From assembly GCA_041678505.1 (NCBI GenBank), contig JBAYOB010000001.1, forward strand, positions 1,667 to 65,666: a stretch of 64,000 nt of DNA, given 5' to 3'. This DNA comes from Candidatus Dojkabacteria bacterium. GTDB lineage: Bacteria > Patescibacteriota > Dojkabacteria > SC72. The notes beneath the pieces were generated by a model that did no database searches, was not told the origin of the DNA, and saw nothing but the letters and a program-made list of their open reading frames with translations. The position numbers were made by a program, and so were the translations under genes. Every line of letters starts with the position of its first letter. Position 1 is the first letter of the stretch. Positions 13,348 through 58,300 of the stretch are shown piece by piece.

Positions 13348-13356
13348 TCGTGTAGA

Positions 13357-15530: not shown

Positions 15531-15596
15531 AACGAAAAGGCAGCATCTTTCAATTTAGTTGGTTAAAATGTACATGTAATATAATTTTTTGTCAAG

Positions 15597-16802: not shown

Positions 16803-16864
16803 ATGTGCAATGATATTGTAAATTATATTAGTTAGTCAAATTTTGATATAATTCTACTGCTTTT

Positions 16865-16951
16865 GGAGAGGTGCCAGAGCGGTCGAATGGGACGGTCTTG
16901 AAAACCGTTGTACAGGTTCCTGTACCGAGGGTTCGAATCCCTCCCTCTCCG
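16865..16951 (+). tRNA. tRNA-Ser (anticodon TGA), with a long variable arm
   Basis: The acceptor GGAGAGG pairs with CCTCTCC. The anticodon stem ACGGT/ACCGT flanks the loop CTTGAAA, giving anticodon UGA. A long variable arm TGTACAGGTTCCTGTAC and a T-arm GGTTCGAATCC follow. It closely resembles E. coli tRNA-Ser(UGA). Confidence 0.85.
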
Positions 16952-16985
16952 TAGTATTAATCTATATAAATTAAAAGTTCTTTTT

Positions 16986-41233: not shown

Positions 41234-42553
41234 ATGGCGGAAATAAAAAAAATACCACCACAAAATATAGAGGTAGAGCAATCTTTACTATCCTGTATGT
41301 TGATGGATAAAGATGCAATTATAGCTGTATCAGGTTGGCTTTTACCCGAGCATTTTTATGATGACAGACATGTTTTAATATACTCAAGTATTTTAGAACT
41401 TTTTAATGAAGGTCTTCCTGTAGATTTAATTACACTAACAGATAATCTTAAAAAGAAGAAGAAATTAACAGGGATAGGGGGAAGAGCCTACTTAGCAGAT
41501 TTGGCTACAATGGTTGCTACTTCTGCACATGCAGAGGAGTATGGTGAGATTATAAAAGAGAGTGCTACTAGAAGAGGTCTTATAAGTGCAGCAAGGCATA
41601 TTACTGAGTTTGCTTTTAATGAATCAACTAGTATAGATGAGGTAATAGATAAATCAGAGAAACAGGTTTTTGAAGTTGCACAGGCGGGTACAAAAGCAAA
41701 CTTTGTTCATATTAAGGATTTGCTAAAAGATGCCTATGAGAGGGCAGAGAGGGCAGATAAAGATGAGGCATATTTAGGAGTATCTACAGGTTTCAAAGAC
41801 CTAGATGATCTTCTTGGTGGTTTCCAAAAGTCAGATCTTGTTATACTTGCAGCTAGACCATCTGTAGGGAAAACAGCATTAGCATTAGATATGATGAGAC
41901 ATGCTGCTTTGGTAGAGGGGAAAACGGTTGCTTTCTTCTCTCTTGAAATGTCCAAGACACAGATTATGGATAGGTTGTTGGGTATGCAGTCAGGCATCCC
42001 ATTTTGGGAAATTAGAACTGGAAGACTGAGTGATAAAAAGTTTATGAAATTAGCAGATACAATGGGAGAGCTGGCCGATGCAAATATATATGTAGATGAT
42101 CAAGCGGGACAGCATATCAACGCACTAAGAACAAAGGCAAGAAGACTTGCAATAGAGAGAGGGGTAGATATTATTTTCGTAGACTATCTTCAATTAATGC
42201 ATGGCAATAGTAAGGAGAGTAGGACATTAGAAGTTGGAGAGATATCTCAAGGTTTAAAGAATATAGCAAAAGAGTTAGATATCCCAGTGGTAGGGATATC
42301 TCAACTATCTCGTGCTATTGAACAGAGACAGAGTAGGAGACCTCAACTATCTGATTTGCGAGAGTCTGGTTCTATAGAACAGGATGCGGATGTAGTTATG
42401 TTTGTTGACAGAGAAGAGGCATGGAATCCCGATACTGAGGAGAAAGGCTTAGGTGAATTAATTGTTGCAAAGCATAGAAATGGTCCTACAGGTGTTGTTA
42501 AGTTGGCTTTCATAAATGAGATTGCCAGTTTTAGGAATTTGTATAAAAAGTAG
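41234..42553 (+). CDS. dnaB: Replicative DNA helicase DnaB
   Basis: The N-terminal motif is 'IEVEQSLLSCMLMD'. The Walker A is 'ARPSVGKTALAL'. The RecA-like C-terminal domain is present. Confidence 0.9.
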   Translation: MAEIKKIPPQNIEVEQSLLSCMLMDKDAIIAVSGWLLPEHFYDDRHVLIYSSILELFNEGLPVDLITLTDNLKKKKKLTGIGGRAYLADLATMVATSAHAEEYGEIIKESATRRGLISAARHITEFAFNESTSIDEVIDKSEKQVFEVAQAGTKANFVHIKDLLKDAYERAERADKDEAYLGVSTGFKDLDDLLGGFQKSDLVILAARPSVGKTALALDMMRHAALVEGKTVAFFSLEMSKTQIMDRLLGMQSGIPFWEIRTGRLSDKKFMKLADTMGELADANIYVDDQAGQHINALRTKARRLAIERGVDIIFVDYLQLMHGNSKESRTLEVGEISQGLKNIAKELDIPVVGISQLSRAIEQRQSRRPQLSDLRESGSIEQDADVVMFVDREEAWNPDTEEKGLGELIVAKHRNGPTGVVKLAFINEIASFRNLYKK

Positions 42554-42611
42554 GGTCTAGTCCTCATAAAGGCTTTTTTGTATAATTACACCAAGACTTA
42601 ATTATAGATTA

Positions 42612-42695
42612 GGTCGAGTGGTGGAATCGGCAGACACGCGGGACTCAAAATCCCGTGCTAGCAATAGCGTGAGGGTTCAACTCCCTCCTCGACCA
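42612..42695 (+). tRNA. tRNA-Leu (anticodon CAA), with a long variable arm
   Basis: The acceptor GGTCGAG pairs with CTCGACC. The anticodon stem GGGA/TCCC flanks the loop CTCAAAA, giving anticodon CAA. The T-arm is GGTTCAACTCC. The architecture matches E. coli tRNA-Leu(CAA). Confidence 0.8.
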
Positions 42696-42720
42696 TATAT
42701 ATACTTTTTAAAAATATATT

Positions 42721-43440
42721 ATGGAAGACTTTATTCTTAATTTACTTGAAAGTATTGGTAATATAGACTTTACTTTCATATGGGAGATATTCCTTTATTC
42801 ATTAATTGTATTCTGGGTAGTTGTCCTCTATTGGGTATGGCTTGATTCAGGAGAGAGAACTTCTAACAAAACAGTTAAATTTTCATATGTACTTTTAGTT
42901 GCAGTATTGAATATAGTTGGGTTGATAATATATTTGATCATTAGACCTACACAAACAATAGAAGAGATCTATTGGAGTGATTTAGAAAGAAGGTATTTAA
43001 AATATGAGACAGCAGAATTAGGAGATTGTACAAAATGTGGAAGACAGCTGTTCCCAGGTTTTAACTTTTGTCCACATTGTAGAGAAACAATTAAAATTAA
43101 ATGTCCTAATTGTAAAGTAAATATAGATAAAAGGAGTAAATTTTGTCCATTTTGTGGTACCTTGATAGAGCAAAGGGTAAGTCCTGAACAAGAGTCTCCA
43201 TCAAAAGAAGTTATGGAACAACAGATTCAAGCTGTTAGGGAAGAGGCTACACAGGTAGTAGAGTCTAAAGGTACTAAATATACTACAAAGAAAAGCTTTG
43301 TTGTTAAAATAGGTGAGTCTATTATAGGAGGGTACAAAATCATAGGGCGAAAACTGAAAAATTTAAGTAAGAAGAAACCTAAAAGAGATAAGAAAAGTAA
43401 AAAAGAAAAGAGTAAATCTGAAAACGAGAAAGAGGAATAG
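42721..43440 (+). CDS. Membrane protein with a double zinc-ribbon (CxxC x4) and a lysine-rich C-terminal tail
   Basis: It has 2 TM helices followed by 'CTKCGRQLFPGFNFCPHC...CPNCKVNIDKRSKFCPFCG'. Confidence 0.5.
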   Translation: MEDFILNLLESIGNIDFTFIWEIFLYSLIVFWVVVLYWVWLDSGERTSNKTVKFSYVLLVAVLNIVGLIIYLIIRPTQTIEEIYWSDLERRYLKYETAELGDCTKCGRQLFPGFNFCPHCRETIKIKCPNCKVNIDKRSKFCPFCGTLIEQRVSPEQESPSKEVMEQQIQAVREEATQVVESKGTKYTTKKSFVVKIGESIIGGYKIIGRKLKNLSKKKPKRDKKSKKEKSKSENEKEE

Positions 43441-43503
43441 AATATTTTCTGAGAAATACAGATTTGTGTTATCATTATTTATGTAATTTTAATCTAACGA
43501 TTT

Positions 43504-44340
43504 GTGTATCGGGCTTTTATAAGTAACCTTGAAAAGATACTGTTAGGGATTAATCCTTTAATACTGTTTTTATTAGTTGTTTTTATAGGATTATTTGTCT
43601 TCTGGAGAGGCTGTATATCAACAAGGAAAAACAACTCCTCTATTTTTGATACCTTCTTACTTTCTTTGTTCTCTGGAGTAATTTTTGGCAGAATCTCCTT
43701 TATAATAAATAATTCTGCCTCTTACATATCTAAAATATGGTACTGGCTCCCTTATGAGAAATATGGAGATGAGATTTATCTTTTTAGATTACTACCATGG
43801 AGGTTCTTTAGAGTATGGGACTGGGGCATAGATATCTTCTCTATGAGTATTGGTTTCCTGATAATGACATCTGTCTGGTCTCTGTTTGTTAAAAAGTGGA
43901 AATGGAGTGATATCTTTACAACAATTTTCTTTACAGTACAAGTGATGTTAGGGATAGCTTTTTTGATACTAGGAGGATCTAGTTCAAATGAATCATGGAT
44001 GTTAGAAGGTTTACTTATGCTTCTGATGCCTTTGATTCTACTTTTTCTCAAAAATTCAACAAAAGTTATTAACAAGAAGAAAAAATTTGATAAAGCGGCT
44101 ATGGTACTTGATGTTTTCTTCATATTACTTAGTACACTGTATATCTCTCATACCTATCTAACAATGGATATCTCTAAGATAGAGAGAGGTGGTGTCATAT
44201 TCTTTATCCTCTGGGCTGTTTTAGGCACATTTTTTTACATATTGGATTCTAGAAAGGACTATGTAACTATAGAGAAAGTTTCATCAGTAAGAGAAATATC
44301 TCCAATAGAGATGAACCATCCAATAAAATTACCTAAATAA
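43504..44340 (+). CDS. lgt: Prolipoprotein diacylglyceryl transferase-like membrane protein
   Basis: 'LFSGVIFGRISF' and 'LFRLLPWRFFRVWDWGIDIFSMSIGFLIM' parallel the Lgt segments 'FLGGRIGY' and 'LYLFRVWDGGMSFHGGLIG'. Confidence 0.5.
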   Translation: MYRAFISNLEKILLGINPLILFLLVVFIGLFVFWRGCISTRKNNSSIFDTFLLSLFSGVIFGRISFIINNSASYISKIWYWLPYEKYGDEIYLFRLLPWRFFRVWDWGIDIFSMSIGFLIMTSVWSLFVKKWKWSDIFTTIFFTVQVMLGIAFLILGGSSSNESWMLEGLLMLLMPLILLFLKNSTKVINKKKKFDKAAMVLDVFFILLSTLYISHTYLTMDISKIERGGVIFFILWAVLGTFFYILDSRKDYVTIEKVSSVREISPIEMNHPIKLPK

Positions 44341-44344
44341 AAAT

Positions 44345-45313
44345 ATGGAAGAAAGGGTAGGGAAAAGATTAGATCTGTTTCTATCAGAATATTTGAAAGG
44401 AAAGGGGTATTCTGTTTTCTCTAGAGCTTTTTTACAAGAAAACTGGGGTAAATTAATTTCTGTTAATAACTCTTTTCCTAAGCCTTCATACAGATTGAAG
44501 ATAGATGATAAGGTGGTAGTAAATTGGGAAAAAATCAAAAGATTAGAGAGCAGTTTAGATAGAAGTGAGAATATTCTAGGAGAAGAGGGTGATTTAGATA
44601 TACTGTTTGAAGAAGATAGTTTTTTGATAGTAGATAAGCCAAAGGGTATAGTTATCCATCCAGGAATTGGTAATCTATCAAATACTTTGGCAAATAAGGT
44701 TAGAGGATATCTTGAAACTAAAGGAGAGTATGAGAAAGATTTAAAAAGAGCAGGTTTAGTACATAGGTTAGATAAGGGGGTGTCAGGAGTTATGGTTTTT
44801 GCAAAAACATCTGCTATGCAAGAAAATCTACAAGAACAGTTTGAATCACATAGGACAAAAAAAATATATCTGGCACAAGTAAGATACAAACAACTAACTC
44901 CTGATTTTCAAAATCTAATACCAGCGGAGAAATTAGATATATATAATGAGATAGAGAGATTAGAGAGTAAAAACTTTGTTTTTAATTCTGAATGGCACAA
45001 GGTGGAGGGATATATAGGGAGAAGTGATAGAAATAGAATAAAGATGCTTTTTAAAAGATATAAGAGTAAAGGAGCTAGAGATTCAATCTCATATATCAAA
45101 CCAATATCTCAAGATCAACTTTTAATATCAATAGAAACAGGTAGGATGCATCAAATAAGGGCTACATTAGAATATATGGGAATATACATAGTAGGCGATA
45201 CTTTGTATCAAAAAAGTAAAGGAAAAGAGATCCCAGATAAAATAGAATTAAGGTCGATATTTCTCTCATTTTTTGATTTAAATGGGGAATATTTTTCAAT
45301 ATGTAAAATATAG
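44345..45313 (+). CDS. rluD: RluA-family 23S rRNA pseudouridine synthase (RluD-like) with an N-terminal S4 domain
   Basis: The catalytic motif is 'LVHRLDKGVSGVMVFAKT'. Confidence 0.8.
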   Translation: MEERVGKRLDLFLSEYLKGKGYSVFSRAFLQENWGKLISVNNSFPKPSYRLKIDDKVVVNWEKIKRLESSLDRSENILGEEGDLDILFEEDSFLIVDKPKGIVIHPGIGNLSNTLANKVRGYLETKGEYEKDLKRAGLVHRLDKGVSGVMVFAKTSAMQENLQEQFESHRTKKIYLAQVRYKQLTPDFQNLIPAEKLDIYNEIERLESKNFVFNSEWHKVEGYIGRSDRNRIKMLFKRYKSKGARDSISYIKPISQDQLLISIETGRMHQIRATLEYMGIYIVGDTLYQKSKGKEIPDKIELRSIFLSFFDLNGEYFSICKI

Positions 45314-45318
45314 TTAAG

Positions 45319-46512
45319 ATGAAGAGAAGAAGAAACGTTAAAAGGAAAAAAAAGAATAAGATTGATATAAAGGCTATAATTTTACCTCTTTTATTAATAG
45401 GTTTAATTATCTATATAATATATTTCCTAATGCTGTTTTTTGGCATAGAGACAGTTGATTCTGTTGCAGAGAATATCGCCTCATATACAATCCTATCTCA
45501 AGAAAAAGGTGATGTAGAAAAAACTATGTTCCTCTTTGAGAAAGAGGTAGAGGATTTAAGGAGGATTTCTGATATATATGTACTCTTGCAGAATAAAAAT
45601 AGAGGAATCTCTTTATTAATCTATGTCCCTGGAAGTATATATTTTGAAGGATTAGAAGAAGAATTTGGTAACCCTATCTCTATCTCCTCTCTTAGATATG
45701 CAGGAGATTTTCTACAGGAGGATAGGGGAGTGGAGTATGCTCTGTGGCAATTGAGTGAGATACTTGGTTTTAAGGTACAAAACTATATTTGGATAACTAC
45801 AGAGGCATATGAAAAAATACTTGAAATTTATGGTGAACCAAGTCTTCTTAAAGAGAAGGATAAATTAGCATATCATCCATCTGTTAATAAAGAGCTTACG
45901 GATTCTTTTTTCCAACTAAGCACTTTCTCTTCAAATGTTTCTGCTACGGATACATTCTTAAAGATACGTCAGATAAAAGAATTAGATGGGCAAATATTTT
46001 CTAATCTTTCATTTTTCAATGTGATGCAAAGGTTAAGTTCTTTTAAAAAAGAAGTGGAAAATACAGAGGCATATGCTTTGGATATTAGTAGATCCAATTT
46101 TTCCACGGAAAAATTTTCAGAGAATGGAGGTGTAGTTTCAAGTATGAATATAAAGGAGTACGATAAGGTATTGAGAAACTATGTTTTCAAAATGATAGAC
46201 AAAGAATTAGAGAAGGAAAGAGTTAGAGTAGAGGTATACAATGGGACAGATGTTGCTGGGAGGGCTCTGATTTATTCAAGAAAAATACAGAATAGTGGCT
46301 GTGATGTTGTAAGGTTTGGAAATGCGCCTGTTGGACATGAGAGAACCCAAATATATATATCAGATAAAAATCAGTTTAAAAATTCTCTAAAAGTCATATC
46401 GGATGTGCTTTTAGGAAGATTTGAAATGTTAGAGGAGAGACCTTCTTTTATGACAACAGGAGATATTGTAATAATATTAGGTGATGATATTGCTCATACA
46501 GAGATATTTTAG
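45319..46512 (+). CDS. LytR-CpsA-Psr (LCP)-like membrane-anchored protein with a LytR_C-type C-terminal domain
   Basis: An N-terminal TM helix is followed by a degenerate LCP-like core. The C-terminal segment 'RVEVYNGTDVAGRALIYSRKIQNSGCDVVRFGNAP' resembles LytR_C. Confidence 0.4.
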   Translation: MKRRRNVKRKKKNKIDIKAIILPLLLIGLIIYIIYFLMLFFGIETVDSVAENIASYTILSQEKGDVEKTMFLFEKEVEDLRRISDIYVLLQNKNRGISLLIYVPGSIYFEGLEEEFGNPISISSLRYAGDFLQEDRGVEYALWQLSEILGFKVQNYIWITTEAYEKILEIYGEPSLLKEKDKLAYHPSVNKELTDSFFQLSTFSSNVSATDTFLKIRQIKELDGQIFSNLSFFNVMQRLSSFKKEVENTEAYALDISRSNFSTEKFSENGGVVSSMNIKEYDKVLRNYVFKMIDKELEKERVRVEVYNGTDVAGRALIYSRKIQNSGCDVVRFGNAPVGHERTQIYISDKNQFKNSLKVISDVLLGRFEMLEERPSFMTTGDIVIILGDDIAHTEIF

Positions 46513-46521
46513 TTAAGATAG

Positions 46522-48975
46522 TTGCTTAAAAACTTTCTTTCTATTAGAATTCTTACTATGATAATGATAATTGCTGTCCTAATACTGTTGATTCTTTCCC
46601 TTCTTTTTATCGTTTTAATACTTATAATTAGTGGTAAAAAAAAGAGTGATGAAGAGTATTACGAAGAGGTGCGAAACCCTTTCATTATGCAGATTTTAGT
46701 CCCCAGAGAGAATGAAAAAGCATCTTTAGCTGCAGAGCAGATGTTTGCATCCATACATGGAATTCTAGAAGATTATCAAAAGTGCCCAGATGTAGTAAGT
46801 TTTGAGATAGCATCTTCAGAAGAGCATGGTATAAAATTCTATGTTGTAGCATCAGAGCATCTTTCTAGGTTCATTGAAGGACAAATATATGCTCAGTATC
46901 CTAATGCGGATATAAAGTATGTTAATGACTATACCAAAAGAGAGAATGAAGAGAATGTTTTTGTTACGACAGGAGAAATAGAGATGGAGAAAGACTACAT
47001 TTTCCCAATCAAGACTTTTATGAGTTTTGAGGTGGATCCATTAGCGGCGATAACAGGAGCTCTTTCAGAGTTAAATAGAGGTGAGGAGGCTTGGCTTCAA
47101 ATAATTGTAAGGCCAGTATCAAACTATTGGCAAGAGAAAGCTAAGAAATATATTACAGCAATAGAGGAAGGAAAGAACCCTTATGCGAATACCTTCTGGG
47201 ATTTTGTTTCTTCTCTTTTTAAGGGAATAGGTAGTGCTTTAGCAGAAAGCCCTACAAGTAAAGTACAGAAGGAAATAGTGAAACTTTCTCCAGGACAGGA
47301 GGAAGAATTAAAAGAGATAGAAAAGAAGATGCTTAAGGTTGGTTTTGAGTTTAGAATTAGAGTGGTAACAAAGGCGGATACTCAATTAAGGTCAGAGCAA
47401 ATATTAAGAGATATGGTGGCTAGTTTCAAACAGTTTACAACAGCCCATCTAAATAATTTTGTACATATAGTGCCAGAGAAATCAGGTAAGGAGATATATG
47501 AAGATTATCTTAAAAGACATATTTCTCAGGAGGAGTTTGATATATTAAATATTGAAGAGTTAGCCTCTCTATACCACTTACCCAACATTTCAGTTGAAAC
47601 CCCTAATATTGCATGGAGTAGGGCAAAGAAGTTAGAACCTCCTATGAATTTACCCAAGAGTACTGAAGATGAGGTTACAGTATTTGGAGAAACGGATTAT
47701 CGTGATATTAAAGTAGAATTTGGTTTGAAAAAGAAGGATAGACAAAGACATTTCTATCTTCTTGGTAAAACGGGAACAGGAAAATCTACGCTATTTAAAA
47801 ATATGTTCATATCGGATGTTTTAGCTGGAGAAGGAGCCTGTTTTGTAGATCCTCACGGTGATACGGTTGAGGAGCTACTAGACTACATTCCTCCTAACAG
47901 GATTGATGATGTAGTATATTTCAATCCTACTGATGTAGAAAACCCAGTAGGATTCAATCTCTTAGAACTTAAGGATAAGTCTCAAAGAGATCTGATAGCA
48001 GATGGAGTGGTGGAGGTGTTTAAGAAACAGTTTGGAGACTCTTGGGGGCCTAGGCTGCAATATATCCTCACAAATACTGTTTCTACTGCACTAGAAGCAC
48101 AAGGGACGACTCTCTTAGCTATCATTAGGTTATTAACAGATAGTAATTACAGGAAGTTCATATTAAAACAGGTCGATGATCCAATCCTATACAAATTTTG
48201 GACAGAAGAATATGCTCAAATGGCACAGAATAGCCGTTTAATAACAGAAGCTATTTCTCCTATCCAAAATAAGGTGGGAAGATTCATATCCTCTGCTGTT
48301 ATTCGAAACATTATTGGTCAGATTAAATCAACGGTGAATTTAAGAGAAATAATGGATAACCAGAAAATACTACTTGTCAATTTAGCACAAGGTAAGTTAG
48401 GAGAAGAGACAGCTTCACTACTTGGGGGTATGGTAATAACTAGGTTACAGGCAACTGCTATGGAGAGAGTTGATATCGCAATGGATGACAGAAAAGATTT
48501 TTTCCTGTATGTAGATGAGTTTCAGAATTTTGCTACAGAATCTTTTGCTAAAATTCTTTCAGAAGCTAGAAAGTACAAACTAGATTTAACTATGACCAAC
48601 CAATATATTGATCAGATACCACTACCTGTTAGGCAATCCATATTTGGTAATGTAGGAACAATTGGCTCTTTTGTAGTAAGTCCTGCAGATGCTGCCATAT
48701 TAGAAAAAGAGTTTGCTCCGATGGTATCTGCTGATGATTTAGTTTCATTAGATGCTTGGGCAATGTATGTTAAATTGTGTATAGATGGGATGACATCTGT
48801 TCCTTTTAGTGCCAAATCACTACCGATTAGATATCATAAGTTTGCATTAAAAGATGATGTTGTTAGTAGGTCTAGAGAGAAATATGGAACAGAAAGAGAG
48901 GTAATTGAAGGGAAAATTAAGAAATGGAGCAATCAAAAATACAGTGATAAGGGGAATAGGTCTATAGAGAAGTAA
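46522..48975 (+). CDS. Membrane-anchored TraG/TraD/VirD4-family (type IV coupling protein-like) P-loop ATPase
   Basis: It has an N-terminal TM helix, the Walker A 'LLGKTGTGKSTL', the TraG/VirD4-type motif 'FVDPHGD' and a Walker B-like 'LYVDEFQNF'. Confidence 0.55.
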   Translation: MLKNFLSIRILTMIMIIAVLILLILSLLFIVLILIISGKKKSDEEYYEEVRNPFIMQILVPRENEKASLAAEQMFASIHGILEDYQKCPDVVSFEIASSEEHGIKFYVVASEHLSRFIEGQIYAQYPNADIKYVNDYTKRENEENVFVTTGEIEMEKDYIFPIKTFMSFEVDPLAAITGALSELNRGEEAWLQIIVRPVSNYWQEKAKKYITAIEEGKNPYANTFWDFVSSLFKGIGSALAESPTSKVQKEIVKLSPGQEEELKEIEKKMLKVGFEFRIRVVTKADTQLRSEQILRDMVASFKQFTTAHLNNFVHIVPEKSGKEIYEDYLKRHISQEEFDILNIEELASLYHLPNISVETPNIAWSRAKKLEPPMNLPKSTEDEVTVFGETDYRDIKVEFGLKKKDRQRHFYLLGKTGTGKSTLFKNMFISDVLAGEGACFVDPHGDTVEELLDYIPPNRIDDVVYFNPTDVENPVGFNLLELKDKSQRDLIADGVVEVFKKQFGDSWGPRLQYILTNTVSTALEAQGTTLLAIIRLLTDSNYRKFILKQVDDPILYKFWTEEYAQMAQNSRLITEAISPIQNKVGRFISSAVIRNIIGQIKSTVNLREIMDNQKILLVNLAQGKLGEETASLLGGMVITRLQATAMERVDIAMDDRKDFFLYVDEFQNFATESFAKILSEARKYKLDLTMTNQYIDQIPLPVRQSIFGNVGTIGSFVVSPADAAILEKEFAPMVSADDLVSLDAWAMYVKLCIDGMTSVPFSAKSLPIRYHKFALKDDVVSRSREKYGTEREVIEGKIKKWSNQKYSDKGNRSIEK

Positions 48976-49011
48976 ACAAGTTTTTTCTAAATATCCGAAT
49001 ATGATAGAATA

Positions 49012-49800
49012 GTGATTATGGCAGGGCATTCGAAATGGTCTACAATTAAACATAAAAAGGCGATAACTGATGCTAAGAAAGGAAAAGTCTTTTCTAAAAT
49101 ATCTACACAGATAACACATGCTGCAAAAGAGGGTGGAGGAGATCCTAATATGAATCCTTCTTTAAGAATGTATATGGATAAAGCAAAAGAGGTTGGCTTT
49201 CCTGCAAACAATATTGAAAAAGCGATACAAAAAGGTACAGGAGAGGGTTCTGAGGCGGTAATATATGATAATTCCTCATATGAAGGTTTTGGCCCTAGTA
49301 ATATTCAAATAATTGTTGATACATTAACTGACAACAAAAATAGAACAGTGGCAGAACTAAGAAGACTTTTTGAAGATGTAGGAGGTAATATGAGCAGTGA
49401 GGGTAGTGTGTCTTGGAATTTTGATGTAAAAGGTTTGATTATAATTAAATGTGGTCATATGGAAAAAGGAGATAAATTTGGAGAAGGAGATGTATTTGTA
49501 AGTGATGATGTAGAAGAAGTAATGCTTAGTATTATGGATTTAAAGGGAGTTTTAGACATTGTGGAGATTGATTTAAATGGTGTTAAAGGGTTAGAAATAT
49601 ATACAGAGTATGATAAATTGGCAAGTGTAAGAGATGGTATAGGTAATATGAATTATATTATTAAAGAGGCAGAGTTGATTAAAGAGGCTAATACTAAAGA
49701 AAGTCTCGATGGGGAGGAGTTAGAAAAAGTCAAAGAGGCTCTAGATAGGTTGGATGAGCATGACGATGTACAAAGTGTATGGAGTAATTTAAAGTTGTAA
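49012..49800 (+). CDS. yebC: YebC/PmpR-family transcriptional regulator
   Basis: 'MAGHSKWSTIKHKKAITDAKKGKVFSKIS' is the signature N-terminus. The likely start is 49018. Confidence 0.85.
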   Translation: MIMAGHSKWSTIKHKKAITDAKKGKVFSKISTQITHAAKEGGGDPNMNPSLRMYMDKAKEVGFPANNIEKAIQKGTGEGSEAVIYDNSSYEGFGPSNIQIIVDTLTDNKNRTVAELRRLFEDVGGNMSSEGSVSWNFDVKGLIIIKCGHMEKGDKFGEGDVFVSDDVEEVMLSIMDLKGVLDIVEIDLNGVKGLEIYTEYDKLASVRDGIGNMNYIIKEAELIKEANTKESLDGEELEKVKEALDRLDEHDDVQSVWSNLKL

Positions 49801-49861
49801 AAAGAGAGGCAATATAGTATTATTATAAGGACAAGAATTTATCTGTAACAATTATGTAATT

Positions 49862-50488
49862 ATGTCTGTAGAAACGCCATCTTCTCTAATAGAACAAAAT
49901 AGCCTTGAGAAATCTGTTCAAGAGAAAGTACTCGGAAGAATAGGACCTATCTTAAGAGCGGAAGAATTACTCCTTCATTATCGGGAAGGTGCTACGGAGT
50001 TTGATTTTGAAGATGGGATATTTATAATAGGTGAGGAAAAACAAGTAGAAATTTTGAAATATATAGATGCTATGTGTTATGTTGGACCATATGAGATTGC
50101 AATGATTGATGTAGTGCCTTTTTATGCACCAAACGAGGAAGGAAGACAAGACATATTGGTTTCTGCTCTTTTAACAGAAGTGCTTCCTTTTAAAAATAAA
50201 GATATCTTTGAATTACATTCAGATATTGATGTTCTTATTACCTGTGATTCGAGAGAAGCCCTTGTTGAAATTGCAAAAAGATTAATGGGAAACGCAATGT
50301 ATGAAAGCCTTTTAAACCCTTTTCCTTATGCGATTTCAATTTCAGATGAAGATGGGACGGAAAAAGTTGAAATACACCATCTCTTAAGATATGTAGGAGA
50401 ATATCCTGAGATTGCAAAAACTAGTAAGATATTTCGGGAAAGAGGAATAACAGGACCATATAGTGGAACTTTCCATTTAAGAGAGTAA
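49862..50488 (+). CDS. Hypothetical protein (208 aa)
   Basis: It is a long ORF with no recognisable motifs, inserted between yebC and ruvC. Confidence 0.4.
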   Translation: MSVETPSSLIEQNSLEKSVQEKVLGRIGPILRAEELLLHYREGATEFDFEDGIFIIGEEKQVEILKYIDAMCYVGPYEIAMIDVVPFYAPNEEGRQDILVSALLTEVLPFKNKDIFELHSDIDVLITCDSREALVEIAKRLMGNAMYESLLNPFPYAISISDEDGTEKVEIHHLLRYVGEYPEIAKTSKIFRERGITGPYSGTFHLRE

Positions 50489-50515
50489 TCTCCCCTGTTT
50501 ATGTTACAATATCAT

Positions 50516-50980
50516 ATGCGAATATTAGGAATAGACCCTGGTTTGGCTACTACAGGATGGGCAATTGTAGATTTTGATAAGAATGGAGATCCGGAAGTAA
50601 TAGATTACGGTTGTATATCTACAGAGAAAGGATTGCCTGTATCTACTCGTCTTTTAGAGATATTCAATGATATGCAGGAATTAATAGAGACATTTAAGCC
50701 AGATTTAGCAGGAGTTGAGACATTAATATTTTACAATAATGCGAAAACTGCTATGAATGTGGGTGAGGCAAGGGGAGTTGTGAGGGTGGTCTTAGAACAA
50801 AACAGTATCCCTGTAAAGGAATTTACACCTTTACAAGTTAAGAGTGCTGTAACAGGTTATGGAAAGGCTGAAAAGAAGCAAGTACAGGAAAATGTCAAAA
50901 TGTTGTGTAACTTAGATGAGATTCCTAAACCTGATGATGCTGCAGATGCAATAGCTATTGCTATAGCCTCATCTTCATGA
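50516..50980 (+). CDS. ruvC: Holliday junction resolvase RuvC
   Basis: 'MRILGIDPGLATTGWAIVD' matches the RuvC N-terminus. The start was re-set to 50516. Confidence 0.85.
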   Translation: MRILGIDPGLATTGWAIVDFDKNGDPEVIDYGCISTEKGLPVSTRLLEIFNDMQELIETFKPDLAGVETLIFYNNAKTAMNVGEARGVVRVVLEQNSIPVKEFTPLQVKSAVTGYGKAEKKQVQENVKMLCNLDEIPKPDDAADAIAIAIASSS

Positions 50981-51030
50981 TTTTCTAATGTGTTTAATCC
51001 TTCCTACCTTAAATCCTGTATAATATATAT

Positions 51031-51612
51031 ATGATCTCATATATAACGGGTATCGTATTAAAAAGTAATATATCTAAAAACTCGTATGTAGATATATTAA
51101 CAGATAGTGGGATAGGGTATAGGGTAAACATTCCTAATTCATATACTCCTTTATCTAAAGGAGAGAAATACTCACTATTTACCTATTTACATGTAAGAGA
51201 GGATACTCAAACTCTTTTTGGTTTTGAAAAAGAAGAGGAAAGAGATTTCTTTGAACAGATAATTTCAGTATCGGGGATAGGTCCTAAGACAGGGCTGGCA
51301 ATCCTTTCAACATATTCTAAGAGTAAACTAGAAGATATTATATTAAAGGGTGACTCTAAGGCTTTAAGTAAGGCCCCAGGTTTAGGAAGTAAGGGTGCAC
51401 AAAAGATAATATTGGAACTGAGAGGGAAGATAGATTTTGATGAAAAAGAGAGTAAGGAAGAAGAAATAATTAAGGAGCTAAAGGAGGTATTAAAGGCATT
51501 AGGTTTTTCAGGAGAACAGTTGAAAGAGAAGGTAACTATTGGAGAAAAGATATTATCAAAGAAGAAACAAATTAGTATAGAAGAACTTATTAAGGAGGTA
51601 TTAAACAAATGA
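51031..51612 (+). CDS. ruvA: Holliday junction branch-migration protein RuvA
   Basis: It has the N-terminal OB domain segment 'GIGYRVNIP' and HhH motifs 'ISVSGIGPKTGLAILS'. Confidence 0.85.
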   Translation: MISYITGIVLKSNISKNSYVDILTDSGIGYRVNIPNSYTPLSKGEKYSLFTYLHVREDTQTLFGFEKEEERDFFEQIISVSGIGPKTGLAILSTYSKSKLEDIILKGDSKALSKAPGLGSKGAQKIILELRGKIDFDEKESKEEEIIKELKEVLKALGFSGEQLKEKVTIGEKILSKKKQISIEELIKEVLNK

Positions 51613-52637
51613 TAAAGTCTACGGTAGATAAGAAAAAAACAGAGAAGAAAAAAGGAAAAGTTGTAGATTCTACATCTACAATTCCAGAATTAGAACAAAA
51701 AATTAGACCAAGTAAGTTAGATGAAATAATAGGGAGGAAAACAGAGAAAGAAACACTAGAAATGATGATAAATTCAGCTCAGAAAAGAAATGAGGTGATA
51801 GATCATATACTTTTCTATGGTCCTCCTGGTTTAGGGAAAACTACTTTTGCTATTGCAATAGCAAATGAAATAGGGGCATCTATTAAGATAACATCAGGAC
51901 CAGCAGTGGAGCGACAGGGAGATTTAGCTGCAATAGTAACGGGGTTAAAAGCTAATGATGTTCTTTTTATAGATGAAATACATAGATTGTCTAAGGTGGT
52001 GGAGGAGGTTCTTTATCCTGTTATGGAAGATAGGGTTTTAGACATTATAATGGGGAAAGGTCCTTCTGCTAAGACAATACGGTTGACACTAGAACCGTTT
52101 ACTTTGATAGGGGCTACAACTCAAATTGGGAAAATTAGTTCTCCTATGCGAGATAGATTCGGTTTAATACAGCGACTAGATTTCTTTTCCCAATCAGATT
52201 TAGTTTCTATTCTTGAGCGTGCTAGTAAATTGTGGGATATTAAGGCGGAAAAGGATGCTTTGAAGATGTTAGCTAATTGTTCTAGAGGAACGGCTAGGGT
52301 AGGGCTTAGATTGTTAAGAAGGACAAGGGATTATGCAGATAAAAAGAAATCAAGCACCATTACAGAAGAGATAGTAATTAAAACGATGCAACTTTTAGGA
52401 GTAGATCTTCAAGGTCTGGAGGAGATAGATAGAACAATACTTAGGACTATGTTAAATAATTTTGCAGGAGGACCTATCGGTCTTTCTACTTTAGCAGCAT
52501 CTATCTCTGAGGATGAAGTTACTTTAGCTGATGTACATGAACCCTATCTCATGAAGTGTGGCTACATTAAAAGAACATCTAGGGGTAGAGTATTAACAAC
52601 GAAAGGTCTAAAATATATAGAATCTGTAGATGGATAA
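51609..52637 (+). CDS. ruvB: Holliday junction ATP-dependent helicase RuvB
   Basis: It has the AAA+ Walker A 'LFYGPPGLGKTTFA' and a Walker B 'VLFIDEIHRL'. It overlaps ruvA by 4 bp. Confidence 0.9.
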   Translation: MIKSTVDKKKTEKKKGKVVDSTSTIPELEQKIRPSKLDEIIGRKTEKETLEMMINSAQKRNEVIDHILFYGPPGLGKTTFAIAIANEIGASIKITSGPAVERQGDLAAIVTGLKANDVLFIDEIHRLSKVVEEVLYPVMEDRVLDIIMGKGPSAKTIRLTLEPFTLIGATTQIGKISSPMRDRFGLIQRLDFFSQSDLVSILERASKLWDIKAEKDALKMLANCSRGTARVGLRLLRRTRDYADKKKSSTITEEIVIKTMQLLGVDLQGLEEIDRTILRTMLNNFAGGPIGLSTLAASISEDEVTLADVHEPYLMKCGYIKRTSRGRVLTTKGLKYIESVDG

Positions 52638-53451
52638 AATTGGTAGGAATATAGATGAGGAAAAGAGAGGTAAACTTCTAGTTCTTGCAGCTTTTATCTC
52701 TATTGCTATCTTTGTCACTAAGATTACTCAAGCACAGGCTCAGATTGTAGTATGGAGAGTGTATCTTAATGCAGCAATATATTTCTTAATTGCATTCGTT
52801 GGATTAATTTGGGCATTTGGATTTCAGATTAAGAAAAAGTCTATACTATTTATTCTTCTTCCCTCCTTTTATGTCTTTTCTCAAGCTCTGTTTATAGAGT
52901 TTTTCTTTTTCCAGAAGTTTAGTCGTATTTATGAAGCCATTATACTTCTTCTGTTAATATTTTTGGCCTTTTTAGGTAACTATGTTTCATTCTTAATGGC
53001 CAATGTTTTAAATGTAGATCTGTTTAAAAAAATACCTCTTGCACAGGTAGGTAGAACCTCTTCCTATCTGGTTTCTCTTCTAATGATGTATTTTTTTACT
53101 TTTAGTTTCCTAGTTAGTGGCTTCCCGCTGTATATTTTACTTCCTCTTCTGTTACTATCATATATTTTTGTTGTTTCTGTTCATTACTCTAATATTGGCC
53201 TAGAGGGTAGGGAGCTTTTAAGAAAAAGTATATTAACAATATTAATATCATTTACTCTTTTTCTAGGGATATTCCTAACAGGAGATGCTCATGAAGTTGT
53301 TGCTGCTATACCTGTTCTTGGTTATTTCTTTACAGTAGGGGTAGTTAGTAGAGAGAGAGTTGTTCACAGTAAAGCTAAAGGGATCTATTTGTATGCAATC
53401 ATTTTAGTAATAATGTTCCTTTTTGCAGTATTTTTAAATATTCGCAATTAG
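52630..53451 (+). CDS. Polytopic membrane protein, hypothetical
   Basis: It has about 7 hydrophobic helices and overlaps the ruvB stop. Confidence 0.4.
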   Translation: MDKIGRNIDEEKRGKLLVLAAFISIAIFVTKITQAQAQIVVWRVYLNAAIYFLIAFVGLIWAFGFQIKKKSILFILLPSFYVFSQALFIEFFFFQKFSRIYEAIILLLLIFLAFLGNYVSFLMANVLNVDLFKKIPLAQVGRTSSYLVSLLMMYFFTFSFLVSGFPLYILLPLLLLSYIFVVSVHYSNIGLEGRELLRKSILTILISFTLFLGIFLTGDAHEVVAAIPVLGYFFTVGVVSRERVVHSKAKGIYLYAIILVIMFLFAVFLNIRN

Positions 53452-53920
53452 AGAAATATGTGTGTTGTTTCATGAGAGTAGGGGGAGGGCACCTTGGAGC
53501 CCATAGTATCCGATGGCCTGTAGTAATCGGTGTGGATAAGGTTCTGCTAAATAAATCTTAGATGAAAATAAAAGAGACAGTATAGTAGAAGTATATCTTT
53601 TTAACGAATTTATATTCTTCTTGTATTTAATCATTTTAAATAATGGGGTTACTTCTTCTCCCCTTTACGATAATATGTTACAATACCAAATATGGCAATC
53701 GAGTATAATCATCCTTATATGCGGTGATGTACTCTGGGGCTTTGGAGGAGACTCTCTAAGATCTAATTTAAGATATTTAAATTAAATGAGATATATGATC
53801 AACCACACTTACCACAATTCAATCCTGTATTACTCTCTCTCATTCATATGTTCCTCATCAGCTTTTCAAAAAATAGTCCCCTACTCTGGTTGTTTAAATT
53901 TTAATTTGATATAAAGAGAT

Positions 53921-55285
53921 ATGGACAATTTCCCTAAATTAGAAGATCAAGATGACTTCTTACTCTACCTTCAGAATAATAATTACAGCATACAGAGCAT
54001 TCATAACTATGCACGTGATCTTTGTATATTTGCTACCTTTCTGTATTTCAGGAATGTAAAGTTTAAGAATATTACTAAGAGAGATATAAGTACGTTTAAA
54101 GGATACTTAGTTGCAGGAGAACATTTAAAAGATTTGGATAGATTTAGAGGTCAATACAGAAGAAAGATTGATACAGCAAGGGTTCAGAAGGACGAAGCTC
54201 TCAGAGGCGATCTAAGGCATGTTGAAATTCAAAGTGATACAGTTACACCTTTTGAAGAGGATGAAAAGTCGGTGAAACATGAGGAGAAGTTTGAAAGCAA
54301 ATTTTTGACTGATGTTTACAGTAAGGTCTATGGAAGTCTTGGGAAATTTTCTAAACCGTTGAATAGTTCAGCTAGGAAAAATAATGGATTGGATCCAAGG
54401 AGTATAAATAGGATGTTATCTGCTTTGAGATCTTTTTTAAGATTCAGAATATCTTGGGATTTGGATGTTCCAATTCCTCCAGATGCAATTGATATGATGA
54501 AAGCAGAAAAAAGGACAAAGAAGGTTGCTGATTTAGAAGAGCTTGTTAAATTAATTGAATCACCAATGCTTTTTGAGAGAGATGAAAGGGTGGCTTTAAG
54601 AAATAGGTGTATGCTAGAGATGTTAATTTCAACAGGTATGAGGATATCAGAGTTGATCTCTTTGGATTTGGAACAGATTAATGAAGATGGTAAATTATAT
54701 ATTATTGGTAAAGGTAAGAAAGAAAGATCTGTGTTTTTAACATCAAGGAGTTTGGATTGGTTAAATAAATATTTAGTGGTTAGGTTAAAATATGCATTTT
54801 TGGATAGGAGTAAAGATGAACAACCAGTAGAAATGAATGGGATTTTTGATGAAAATTATAGTGAAAAAGACCGTGAAACATCTGAGGTTTCTAACTTAAA
54901 TTTAGAAATTTTTGATAAAGGGAATAGGAAATATATAGGGCTGGTTGAAAAGTATAGGAAAAGTGGTCTGTTAAGTAAGTTTGATTCCCCTGCCCTATTT
55001 ATTCCTTTCTCAGGTGTTAGAGCTAAAAAACCTAATTCAAGATTATCTACAAACTATTTACAAGAAAGAATTGCTGTGTATAGAAGGAAGTTAGGTATAC
55101 AGATACCTACCTCTGCTCATAGCTTAAGGCATGGTTTTGCTACCTACTTGGCAGAACAAGGAGCTAGTCCAGTGGCGCTACAACTGTTGTTAGGTCATGA
55201 GAGTTTAAATACTACTACAAGGTATGTCCATGCAAGTGAGAAATTTGCAGAGGAAACTGTTAGAAAGAATCATCCATTGAAATAA
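53921..55285 (+). CDS. Tyrosine-type site-specific recombinase/integrase (XerC/D-like catalytic domain; 454 aa with insertions)
   Basis: Three catalytic motifs are present: box I 'LRNRCMLEMLISTGMRISEL', box II 'SAHSLRHGFAT' and the Tyr motif 'LLGHESLNTTTRYVH'. Confidence 0.8.
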   Translation: MDNFPKLEDQDDFLLYLQNNNYSIQSIHNYARDLCIFATFLYFRNVKFKNITKRDISTFKGYLVAGEHLKDLDRFRGQYRRKIDTARVQKDEALRGDLRHVEIQSDTVTPFEEDEKSVKHEEKFESKFLTDVYSKVYGSLGKFSKPLNSSARKNNGLDPRSINRMLSALRSFLRFRISWDLDVPIPPDAIDMMKAEKRTKKVADLEELVKLIESPMLFERDERVALRNRCMLEMLISTGMRISELISLDLEQINEDGKLYIIGKGKKERSVFLTSRSLDWLNKYLVVRLKYAFLDRSKDEQPVEMNGIFDENYSEKDRETSEVSNLNLEIFDKGNRKYIGLVEKYRKSGLLSKFDSPALFIPFSGVRAKKPNSRLSTNYLQERIAVYRRKLGIQIPTSAHSLRHGFATYLAEQGASPVALQLLLGHESLNTTTRYVHASEKFAEETVRKNHPLK

Positions 55286-55302: not shown

Positions 55303-58300
55303 CTAATTTGCATCATTAATGATAGAGTAGAATGCATGTAGAATGTATGTTAGTTTTTCTCCCTCTTCATGTTGTTCTGTGGTACTAGTAGTATTTAAGT
55401 CCGGATGAGCTCTTTTTAGTATATTGATATATACCTTACGCCAATCTTTAAACTGTGATCTCTGTTTTCTAATTAAAAAGATTTTTTCCGCTTCAGTAAG
55501 AGATGAAGGGCCATTATCTAGTAGTTTTGCAAGAATCTGTATGGGCAAATTCCTTACTGTTTCAAGAAAATTATATGACTGCTGTTCAATAGGGTCTGAA
55601 GAGTCTTTATTAAATCCCCAAAATGGGTCATATTTCTGTTCTGGTTGTTCATGTTCAGACTGTTCAGAGGATGCCGAGTCTCCATCTGTAAAGTTTCCTT
55701 TATATCTGAGATATTCCTGTATTATTGGAATTTTACTAATATAGTTTTCGTACATGTCTACATAAAGCCCGTTCCTTAGTCCAGGATTTCCATATCCTTC
55801 TGCTTGTGATTCGTATTCGAATGCTGGAGTTATTAAATCTCCTCCTTTAATCCAATTTCTATGCAGTCCAGTAGAAGTAATATTTCCTTCTTCATGAATT
55901 CCTCCTATCCAAACTCTACCTTTTGTATCCTTGTAGAGCGTGTATCTTAAAGAATTATCGTTAGAGGGATAGACTTCAACTGTAACTTCACCACCATAAA
56001 AAAGGCTCCTTTGACTCCATGTGTCAATGAGATTGGAATAGTTAGGAGACTCTTCTTCGGTAAGTACTAATTCTTCTGGAGGTACTTTTTCATTTGAGCC
56101 TGTTGTATAAGGGAAGTTCTTGAGTTCTCTAGGGTTTTCGTTTATCTCTTGATAATAAGAGTACTTCTCAGATTCCGTGTTATTTACCTGATTGTATTTT
56201 GTTCCTAGTCTTGCAGTACCGGCAAAAACGAATTCAGCATCATCTATTGCTAGAATAGAATTTTCATCCTTTGTTATCTCTGATAAGGCTTTACTTATTG
56301 GAATTGGAAGCCCAAGGCTTTCTTCACTCCATCCCTTACCATACCATCCAATAGAACTGTTATCATTTGGGTCAAGACTGTAGTAAGGCAATAGTCTCCA
56401 TGTGGCAGAAGAGTTGCTAAGATAATAAGATCTTGCATAAACCTTATCTTCCTGTTCTACATATGCTACAACAGCCAAGCGGTTACCCATAATTCTGTAT
56501 GCTGATGAGGATAACCATATTACAGAGTTTTCCATGTTTATTCTGTATTTTGGTGATAAACCTTTCTCTCTTAATATCTCTGCAGTTAAGGTTTTTCCCT
56601 GATATAGATCACCTTCTATTATTACTTTGTCTAATATTCTCTCTGCGTCATCACTTTCCAATGTATGGATACCATAAGCTATTTCACCTTGTGTAAAAGG
56701 AGAATCCTCCAAAACTTGTTCTGGAGTGCTACTTTGATACGATTGCTCAGAAGATGTAATTTCTTCATCAAGAGGTATATTTCCTACAAAAGAACCCGCC
56801 TCTTCTTCTTTTATACGTAGAATTCTTTGAGCTAACACTCTACTAGTTATTATTTCTCTTTCCTCTATAGGTTTCATTGTGCCCCACTCTACCCAAGTAC
56901 TGTTTTCCTTAATACCAGATTGTACTTTTTGGAATCCACCATTATTGCCATGAGGGAAAAGGTTTATTCTTCTTCTACCTCTTTGTCCGTCGGCAGAAGA
57001 GATATTATCTAGTACATTTGTAAGTACTTCTATTTTAGTGTCATTTTCTTGAGAAAGAAGTGTATCAACTAGGTCCTCTATCTCAATTGGTTGGCTATCC
57101 ATAAACCATCCTAAATTAGTAAGTGTAAAAGAGTGATTACCCATTATAAATATCTGTCCGTTAGGCATAAATTTATAGTTCTTATCTGTATAATCTTTTC
57201 CAAAAACCTGTGTAATAAGTATTTCTCTAGTGTATTCTTCAAGTAGAGGGTCTACAGGCTCAGGTTTGGGGATTTCAACATTTAATTCAGGTATAGATAA
57301 AATAGTTTCTCTAATAATTCTTCCTTCTTTAGCTGGGAAAAGAGATGCTATAGCTAAAGATGAAGTAATACCTAATGTGTTTAGTGTAAGATTGGGAGTA
57401 GTATCCACCAATGTTGTTAGGTCTATAGAATCTACAGTGGCTTCAAAATTAAAATTAATTCCAGGGGAACTTTGGGTTATCGTTTGTCCAGGGGATGAAG
57501 CAGGGAAATTAACAGGTAGCCCATTGTTAAGTTGTTGTAACCATCTCATTACTGTGGGAGAATTTGTTATTTCAAATTGTTCAGCAGGTTGTACAGGATT
57601 GTTTAGTCCAAATTCAGTTCTAATATTTGCATCATTAATATTATGCCCCCCTCCATCTCTATACAAAAAATTTTGTAACTCATGTTTTTCTCCCTGCATG
57701 TTAGGGTTGTACTCTTTTGCTACGGTGAGGATCTTATCGAGCAAGGATGGCACAGAATCTCCTGTCTCTACCTTAATAATGGAAGAGCTTGGTGTCCCTT
57801 CTGTGACAGAAATAGATTCAGATCCAGGGATACTAGATAGTTGTGCAAGGTTAATATTGTGTGCAGTACCGTTAATCTGAACAACAGTATCTCCGTTAGC
57901 TTGTATGTTTGAGATAGACATAGATGCTGTGGAACCATCACTCATTGATGCTTTCAATGCACCGGTCAATTGTGATTGATTCATAATGGAAAGGTTCCCA
58001 CTACTGTCGGAGTGAATTATTCCTACTACTTCTCCCTGTTGTCCTACTATTGTTCCCATTATTCCTGTATTTGAACCTGTAAACTCAGAAACAGATACTT
58101 TCCCAAAGCCAGGGTTTTGAATTTCAAAAAGTTTTTCAGCCCCAACAGTGTTCTTAGCATAGAATTCATTAGTATTAGGGACATGTACTAAATCAGCAGC
58201 CCCATCTCCATCTAGATCGATTAGATTTACATCTCTCCCTGTGTGGTCTTTGTATTGGGACACATTTGCATTTTGATTATTTAATGCATTTCTATACTGA

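Follow-up and report, generated by a model that had tools for sequence, protein, structure and literature searches.

A VirD4/TrwB-type ATPase with an N-terminal DUF8128 domain, predicted in a housekeeping gene block of Candidatus Dojkabacteria and conserved across CPR bacteria

Two co-directional genes on the + strand of a Candidatus Dojkabacteria contig (JBAYOB010000001.1, assembly GCA_041678505.1) encode an LCP-fold/LytR_C protein (45319-46512, 397 aa) and a large ATPase (46522-48975, 817 aa from the TTG codon at 46522). They lie in a stretch of 64,000 nt (positions 1,667-65,666 of the forward strand), which is referred to here as the window and whose numbering is used for all coordinates. 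Profile searches and structural modelling show the predicted product of the second gene to be a membrane-tethered ATPase of the VirD4/TrwB coupling type, of a subtype with an N-terminal DUF8128 domain. The best explanation of its role, which we hold with roughly even confidence, is that of a hexameric translocase serving a type IV secretion system (T4SS) encoded elsewhere in the genomes of these bacteria, members of the candidate phyla radiation (CPR, Patescibacteria). The family is already known, being catalogued and annotated in public databases, and the fact that it is unlinked to secretion genes has been published (Quinonero-Coronel et al. 2025, PMC12102498). New here are the link of DUF8128 to conjugative coupling proteins of monoderm bacteria and archaea, including a split form, the deep synteny of the ATPase gene with the LCP/LytR_C gene and a YebC-RuvC-Xer block, and the presence in the CPR proteins of a transmembrane (TM) helix that is absent from the Bacillus and Natrinema versions, together with conservation at the level of DnaB.

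The ATPase contains a P-loop nucleotide-binding domain of the FtsK/HerA/VirD4-type fold with both Walker motifs. Its first half (47674-47976, +) carries the Walker A motif GKTGTGKST (47764-47790, aa 415-423) and the adjoining strand FVDPHGD (47842-47862, aa 441-447), and its second half (48358-48831, +) the Walker B motif YVDEFQNF (48508-48531, aa 663-670) and TMTNQY (48589-48606). The first three of these motifs had been recognised in an initial annotation made from the sequence alone, and they stand at these positions. Between the two halves, and so between the Walker motifs, lies an all-alpha domain (47977-48357, +, aa 486-612). The AlphaFold model shows it as an eight-helix bundle, as is the arrangement in coupling proteins. 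The model, based on a 57-member alignment (mean pLDDT 84.8), consists of one N-terminal helix, an alpha/beta domain (aa 50-350) and a RecA-type core; 362 of the 420 residues of TrwB-deltaN70 align to it. K421, D665, E666 and Q694 are invariant in the 57 sequences, and the invariance of the Walker A and B residues argues that the ATPase is presumably active.

Among profile models, the protein matched TrwB_AAD_bind (PF10412) with 30.7 bits (cut-off 20.5) and, marginally, the HerA-related DUF87 with 25.7 bits (cut-off 23.2). Of the other models that the initial annotation had proposed to search, TraG-D_C (PF12696) gave a weak match below its cut-off (14.4 bits against 22, aa 662-699) and T4SS-DNA_transf none; AAA_10 was also below the Pfam threshold. 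A search of the PDB with the 57-member family profile returned TrwB (3.6e-6) and DotL (2e-3) as the best matches. Together with the helical insert, these results agree with the earlier assignment to the TraG/TraD/VirD4-type coupling ATPases. A best match to FtsK/SpoIIIE, one of the grounds named for rejecting that assignment, was not seen: Pfam FtsK_SpoIIIE reached 13.4 bits against a cut-off of 24. The protein does not have the VirB4 architecture of a CagE_TrbE_VirB N-terminal domain and a C-terminal ATPase.

The N-terminal TM helix reported earlier for the 817-aa product corresponds to a single hydrophobic segment (aa 13-37; 46558-46632, +), found by hydropathy and included in helix 2-37 of the model, and directly followed by GKKKSDEE. 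With a hydrophobic helix followed by KKK, the positive-inside rule places the bulk of the protein on the inner side of the membrane, and the ATPase body should lie in the cytoplasm. Because the NCBI version and most homologues begin at ATG 46558, this codon is probably the true start, giving a protein of 805 aa. It would leave a spacer of 45 nt to the LCP-like gene, typical of related loci, whereas the open reading frame (ORF) from the TTG codon begins 9 nt past that gene. An 805-aa protein 100% identical to the ATPase is present in public data along with thousands of homologues, and therefore the genes are real and not chance ORFs.

The region between anchor and motor, earlier described as a non-ATPase domain of about 350 aa, is indeed present and is now identified as DUF8128 (PF26449), an alpha/beta domain covering approximately aa 50-375 (46669-47646, +); the Pfam match is precomputed on the identical public protein. 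Its conserved column sets include the motifs LAAEQMFA (46726-46749, +), YAQYPNAD (46888-46911, +) and HLPNISVETPNIAW (47575-47616, +), and judged by invariant columns the domain is as strongly conserved as the ATPase part. When aa 45-385 were compared by phmmer with 1.84 billion representative proteins, 2,371 matched at E 1e-3, 1,161 at 1e-10 and 129 at 1e-30. In the 150 matches listed, DUF8128 starts within about 145 residues of the N-terminus with one exception, in which the best stretch spans just the end of the domain. The listed proteins fall into two size classes, 750-1,130 aa and about 350-480 aa, and members of the second class may be fragments or represent the domain on its own. One clear stand-alone DUF8128 is a 375-aa protein of a Natrinema plasmid, which aligns to aa 47-398 of the ATPase (hhalign probability 98.7, E 4e-16). 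The occurrence of the domain in both fused and split form argues that it functions together with the coupling ATPase.

Outside the CPR, tblastn detected full-length homologues with 25-31% identity in 360 plasmid records, the hosts being Streptomyces and relatives, Bacillus, Staphylococcus, haloarchaea and Sulfolobus. On an Embleya plasmid the homologue (WP_331738717; 28% identity over 644 aa, E 2e-76) is preceded by genes for a PrgI family protein, an XF1762 family protein and a 643-aa ATP-binding protein, which from its position and size we infer to be VirB4-like, and is followed by a replication-relaxation protein and an NlpC/P60 hydrolase. A plasmid of B. subtilis DSM 5611 encodes a 913-aa homologue (WEZ26732; hhalign probability 100, E 2e-41, columns 88-781) upstream of genes for a "conjugal transfer protein" and TcpD and TcpE family proteins. 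The 913-aa protein of this 65-kb plasmid is different from the coupling protein of the pLS20 family (gene 48), which is listed with 786 aa (range 761-820) and two TM helices. On the plasmid of Natrinema sp. DC36 (NZ_CP084475.1, 8911-13123 of locus L087; labels L001-L089 denote the homologous loci from other genomes and plasmids compared with the window locus), a pilin gene and a gene for a 1093-aa conjugal transfer protein are followed, directly after the latter, by the stand-alone DUF8128 gene, which overlaps the start of the gene for a 1031-aa coupling protein (WP_226043279 and WP_226043280). No hydrophobic N-terminal segment was found in the Bacillus and Natrinema plasmid homologues inspected. 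Outside the CPR, the DUF8128 coupling subtype is therefore found alongside VirB4-like ATPases and other transfer genes, in modules for conjugation in Actinobacteria, Bacilli and haloarchaea. We found no experimental study of plasmid DUF8128 coupling proteins in the literature.

Phages also carry homologues, with 44 records that include gp156 of Bacillus phage G and members of the SPO1 group. The ATPase matched PHROG 5156 with an E value of 5.9e-95 over its aa 86-807, gp156 aligned over 820 columns with 23% identity, and tblastn gave 25% identity over aa 68-769; a BFVD fold search returned the same phage proteins. Phage G gp156, SPO1 gp27.4 and PHROG 5156 thus resemble the window ATPase over its full length but are phage-encoded. 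The flank of the phage SP8 homologue that was inspected has no annotated T4SS genes.

From these comparisons the CPR family clearly descends from conjugative coupling proteins. With TrwB of R388, VirD4, TraG, TraD and DotL the window ATPase shares the RecA-like domain, the all-alpha insert between Walker A and Walker B and the N-terminal anchor, and the GATGTGKS...VDPNGD residues of TrwB align one by one with those of the window protein (GxTGxGKS...VDPxGD). Canonical type IV coupling proteins (T4CPs) have two TM helices. The window ATPase, in contrast, has one, shows only about 14% identity to the TrwB-type proteins, carries 330 aa of cytoplasmic DUF8128 between anchor and motor, and is encoded by a chromosomal, vertically inherited and very slowly evolving gene with no T4SS or relaxase genes nearby. 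The plasmid proteins of Embleya, B. subtilis and Natrinema have the same DUF8128 plus T4CP build, with 25-31% identity and the common motif EELA..H.P....ETP.I.W. They differ in adjoining VirB4-like, PrgI/TcpD/TcpE-type, relaxase-type and wall-hydrolase genes, and Natrinema differs from the CPR, Bacillus and Actinobacteria in having DUF8128 as a separate gene.

Within the CPR, one genome per species was scanned with two DUF8128 motifs, which showed that at least 551 species genomes encode a relative. Members from CPR3, WWE3, Woykebacteria, Woesebacteria and others have the same domain set and 42-50% identity to the window protein. Many of the records L001-L076 are titled "uncultured Candidatus Saccharibacteria bacterium", although their ATPase and gene order are clearly Dojkabacteria-like; such titles look unreliable and should not be used to infer the taxonomic spread of the family.

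The Dojkabacteria-type gene order runs L31 (on the - strand), CsoR, metallo-hydrolase, DnaB, zinc-ribbon protein, membrane protein, RluD, LytR_C protein, ATPase, YebC, RuvC, RuvA, RuvB, membrane protein and Xer, with the ATPase at the identical position in 80 loci of many species. The initial annotation had suggested checking the synteny with the LCP-like gene in relatives: wherever a Dojkabacteria-type locus includes the DNA upstream and its ATPase ORF can be called, a LytR_C homologue precedes the ATPase. The two genes are 0-85 nt apart, the exceptions being L064 (133 nt) and L043 and L072, whose ORFs are broken. Distant CPR classes retain RluD, the LytR_C protein, the ATPase and YebC, RuvC, DUF5656 and Xer with insertions, and in CPR3 and Woykebacteria-like loci the LytR_C gene is 0.1-2.4 kb from the ATPase gene. 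No LytR_C gene is found upstream of the ATPase in the WWE3 locus L074 or in L077 and L078. In the latter two, which are closely related, the called ATPase ORF (752-754 aa; 7989-10247 in L077) starts without a TM helix and is abutted by a Na+/H+ exchanger gene in place of LytR_C, which may reflect a joint loss of the anchor and the LytR_C neighbour. Among Dojkabacteria-type loci, the median identity to the window protein is 75% for the ATPase, 76% for DnaB, 74% for RuvB, 68% for RuvC, 62% for YebC and 40% for the LytR_C protein. The fixed gene order and the DnaB-level identity therefore indicate vertical inheritance under strong constraint and not a mobile-element remnant. The CPR gene is chromosomal, lies in a fixed housekeeping block across classes, and encodes a TM helix absent from the Bacillus and Natrinema homologues inspected.

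In the upstream LCP-like protein, a single hydrophobic segment, within aa 13-49, comes after a Lys/Arg-rich N-terminus. The TM helix indicated by hydropathy and by the model (helix 17-42) covers approximately aa 17-42 (45367-45444, +) and is preceded by MKRRRNVKRKKKNK; by the positive-inside rule this would be a type-II membrane protein with its N-terminus inside and its C-terminus outside. The helix is followed by a highly divergent LCP-fold domain recognised by Foldseek (about aa 60-295; 45496-46203, +) and a LytR_C domain (PF13399, aa 301-390; 46219-46488, +; 34.0 bits, cut-off 22.2), in line with the earlier description of a TM-anchored, co-directional protein with a LytR_C-like C-terminus. 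The protein has 120 homologues with 42-99% identity. Its structural model (pLDDT 87.1) matched 32 LCP chains in the PDB with E values of about 1e-8 to 4e-6, a probability of 1.00 and about 10% identity, including TagT (6mpt, E 9.8e-9), LcpA (6uex), Cps2A (2xxp), MsrR and others, and its C-terminal part matched the Rv2700-type structure 6q10 and the C-terminal domain of Rv0431 (2m5y). The earlier term "LCP-like" therefore holds for the fold (Foldseek E of about 1e-8) but not at the level of Pfam, since the window protein has no LytR_cpsA_psr (PF03816) match; the CPR3 counterpart (L080:6396-7637) does match this family (28.0 bits, cut-off 24.6). A PDB profile search with the LCP-like alignment gave nothing significant. 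The type-II topology and the LCP fold are common to TagT, LcpA, Cps2A and the window protein, and the LytR_C domain is common to it and the solved Rv2700-type and Rv0431 proteins; from the former three it differs by its low identity and missing Pfam LCP match. The only conserved basic residues in the LCP-like domain are K95, R126 (84%) and R136 (86%), and its catalytic competence is therefore uncertain. It could be an enzyme that has diverged or else a pseudo-enzyme.

Quinonero-Coronel et al. 2025 (PMC12102498) report 5,713 T4CP homologues in 2,918 of 3,035 Patescibacteria genomes, just 148 of them near virB4, and suggest that the T4CP was possibly exapted. Like the window ATPase, these homologues are phylum-wide and nearly all far from virB4, and the numbers fit the earlier view of such proteins as recurrent but uncharacterised orphans. 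VirD4-type (t4cp1) matches outnumber t4cp2 matches by 349 to 166 among the Table S3 rows consulted. The parts of PMC12102498 available to us, a study that analysed virB4 neighbourhoods, contain no description of DUF8128, the LCP/LytR_C neighbour or the block from RluD to YebC-RuvC-Xer. For a CPR bacterium with transposon sequencing (Tn-seq) data, Southlakia, the T4SS was found to be essential, and its cluster has no recognisable coupling protein (Wang et al. 2023, PMC10633639). The same genome encodes SEML1_0293, a "T4SS DNA-binding domain-containing" protein of 921 aa with PF10412 from residue 402, which has the same NCBI name and Pfam coordinates as the window ATPase and is a probable member of the family; the orthologue of the window gene may be either SEML1_0293 or SEML1_0142, the latter being essential. 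SEML1_0293 was non-essential by Tn-seq, with reads dropping from 5817 to 2940 and 1372 (PMC10633639). No such ATPase adjoins the YebC-Ruv cluster of Southlakia.

In the explanation we favour, the ATPase would form a hexameric ring under the membrane and, driven by ATP, would pass on a polymer (DNA most likely, though possibly also protein) to a relaxase-less T4SS of the MPF-FATA (mating pair formation) type encoded elsewhere in CPR genomes, including those of Dojkabacteria. DUF8128 would serve as a collar or adaptor between membrane and motor, and the LCP-fold/LytR_C ectoprotein, a long-kept neighbour associated by gene order, could be a wall-side partner. A suitable partner appears to be available, as VirB4 is reported in 2,417 of the 3,035 Patescibacteria genomes and in both Dojkabacteria rows consulted in Table S1 of PMC12102498. 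The initial annotation had called the ATPase an orphan, which holds for its position only: the Dojkabacteria genomes consulted in Table S1 carry VirB4 elsewhere. The functions that it suggested, DNA uptake or export or secretion of envelope components, are putative.

Several observations weigh against a role of the ATPase as the coupling motor of a distant T4SS. It has no match to PF02534 (T4SS-DNA_transf) at E up to 1, and it scores 15-32 bits with the NCBIfam T4CP models (TraD and CD1115 families) against cut-offs of 250-800, in the P-loop region only; some CPR homologues do have precomputed PF02534 or PF12696 matches, which for PF02534 are faint where a strength is given. Consistent with the earlier remark that no other conjugation genes are nearby, the 42 products of the 64-kb window scanned with Pfam (ORFs of at least 120 aa outside larger annotated genes, minus a few of 120-210 aa) include no member of a VirB4, pilus or relaxase family. 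According to PMC12102498, relaxases are very few in Patescibacteria and the CPR T4SS are mostly relaxase-less, the proportion of T4CP homologues near virB4 is very low (148 of 5,713), and these homologues are present in more genomes than VirB4 (2,918 vs 2,417). In Southlakia the T4SS is essential and the probable family member SEML1_0293 is not (PMC10633639). Finally, coupling proteins are not usually as conserved as DnaB.

The main rival explanation is a T4SS-independent envelope motor, in which a hexamer of the TM-DUF8128-ATPase and the LCP-fold/LytR_C ectoprotein would move nucleic acid or another polymer into or out of the cell, possibly for scavenging host DNA or RNA for nucleotides. We regard such a motor as unlikely, though far from negligible. 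The LytR_C gene stands directly upstream in nearly all Dojkabacteria loci (gap 0-85 nt) and no further than 0.1-2.4 kb away in loci of the CPR3 and Woykebacteria-like types, and models and hydropathy give the two proteins complementary topologies, with the ATPase inside and the LCP/LytR_C part outside. This adjacency, however, may just be inherited order within a larger conserved housekeeping block: the partner is absent upstream in WWE3 L074 and in L077/L078, other genes separate the pair in L083 and L089, and the LytR_C protein evolves much faster than the ATPase (median identity 40% vs 75%). Independence from a T4SS would be consistent with the wider distribution of T4CP homologues than of VirB4 reported in PMC12102498, with the dispensability of the probable Southlakia member beside an essential T4SS (PMC10633639), and with the full-length homologues in Bacillus phages G and SPO1, the inspected SP8 flank being free of annotated T4SS genes. 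CPR bacteria also rely on external nucleotides. On the other hand, no channel-forming component was identified, and one TM helix per subunit would make a thin pore. The bolder proposal that the ATPase and the LCP-fold/LytR_C protein form a CPR-wide, T4SS-independent trans-envelope motor importing host nucleic acid seems improbable to us. If true, such a motor would be the missing route for feeding on DNA or RNA in bacteria without nucleotide synthesis, and it would explain the DnaB-level conservation of a former conjugation protein.

Three further readings are poorly supported. A FtsK-like chromosome translocase acting at the division site with the downstream Xer recombinase and RuvABC is very unlikely: the TM anchor, the linker domain, the motor of the FtsK/HerA/VirD4 superfamily, the conservation of YebC, RuvC and an Xer-type recombinase downstream across CPR classes and the DnaB-level conservation would all suit it, but the FtsK_SpoIIIE score lies below the Pfam cut-off, the fold comparison is also poor, and neither the FtsK gamma domain nor the 4-TM region gave a Pfam match at E up to 1. 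Moreover, the CPR bacterium Southlakia has a canonical FtsK with all domains, SEML1_0096 (742 codons, 2,226 nt), which is essential by Tn-seq (PMC10633639), and its YebC-Ruv cluster has no such ATPase alongside. A replacement of FtsK was rejected on account of the poor model and fold scores and of this essential FtsK. There is hardly any likelihood of a DNA-tracking ATPase of a defence system, comparable to DptH/DndH or to mad8 of MADS. The PADLOC match to mad8 (51.5 bits, E 2.4e-14, aa 408-750) is confined to the ATPase fold that the two have in common, the adjacent genes include no methylase, nuclease or other partner in defence, and a near-universal, syntenic and slowly evolving CPR gene is the opposite of what is found in defence islands; mad8 and DptH were rejected as fold-level similarity without defence context. 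A decaying remnant of an integrated conjugative element, suggested by the relatives on plasmids and in phages outside the CPR, is for practical purposes refuted by conservation and synteny. Both ORFs are intact, the catalytic residues are invariant in 57 sequences, the gene keeps its position in 80 loci of many species, GC content and skew match the surroundings, and there is no integrase, relaxase or repeat on either side of the pair, the downstream Xer-type gene belonging to the conserved block.

Much of bacterial diversity belongs to the CPR, whose members live on other cells and are unable to synthesise nucleotides. Among the large uncharacterised proteins of the Patescibacteria, the ATPase family is one of the most conserved. 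Its location away from the T4SS, in a fixed housekeeping block and often directly behind an LCP/LytR_C gene, provides handles for experiments in the genetically tractable Saccharibacteria.

The two genes exist as described in the initial annotation, and the gene content of the window around them is indeed housekeeping (Mfd, DnaX, CysS, RNase HII, RF-1, DnaB, RluD, YebC, RuvC, RuvA, RuvB and an Xer-type recombinase). GC content is about 34% in the window, GC skew is steadily positive on the + strand, and both are the same at the gene pair as in its surroundings. The LCP-like gene begins 5 nt past the stop codon of the RluD-type pseudouridine synthase gene (44345-45313, +; Pfam PseudoU_synth_2), its upstream neighbour in Dojkabacteria and other CPR classes. 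The downstream block (49012-55285, +; assigned by Pfam) starts 36 nt past the ATPase stop codon with YebC (49012-49800) and continues with orf208, RuvC (50501-50980), RuvA, RuvB, a multi-TM protein (52630-53451) and the Xer-type recombinase (53921-55285). The 208-aa product of orf208 (49862-50488, +), located between YebC and RuvC, has no Pfam match and a tblastn match in one of 80 related loci (L055); the gene appears to have been inserted, in this lineage, into a gene order that is fixed elsewhere. The window Xer-type recombinase has 454 aa vs 306-313 aa for the syntenic gene in other CPR loci, and its Phage_integrase match is stretched over aa 217-440, which therefore points to large insertions. 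Scanning 42500-53600 for promoters and terminators gave fewer promoter-like sites than shuffled sequences did, no terminator between the genes and no standout signal, and was taken as uninformative.

Elsewhere in the window, four co-directional genes on the - strand (12427-16802) encode products of 306, 343, 386 and 401 aa with signal-peptide-like N-termini, two of which also have a C-terminal TM helix and a basic tail. None has a Pfam match above threshold, the 343-aa product showing a weak match to WxLIP_PGBD (E 0.0012, 19.3 bits, cut-off 27.3). GC is raised (0.386) and GC skew reversed in this region, which may be a cluster of WxL-like cell-surface proteins. A 1546-aa ORF (55303-59943, -) has no Pfam match at E up to 0.01, and other sizeable ORFs without a Pfam family are located at 17931-19571 (546 aa), 62584-63987 (467 aa) and 33090-35473 (two ORFs), with further ones at 162-1112, 3097-4356 and 19638-20747. 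At gathering score, Rfam matched just two features of the window, tRNA-Ser(tga) (16864-16952) and tRNA-Leu(caa) (42612-42695), the latter between DnaB and the zinc-ribbon membrane protein gene.

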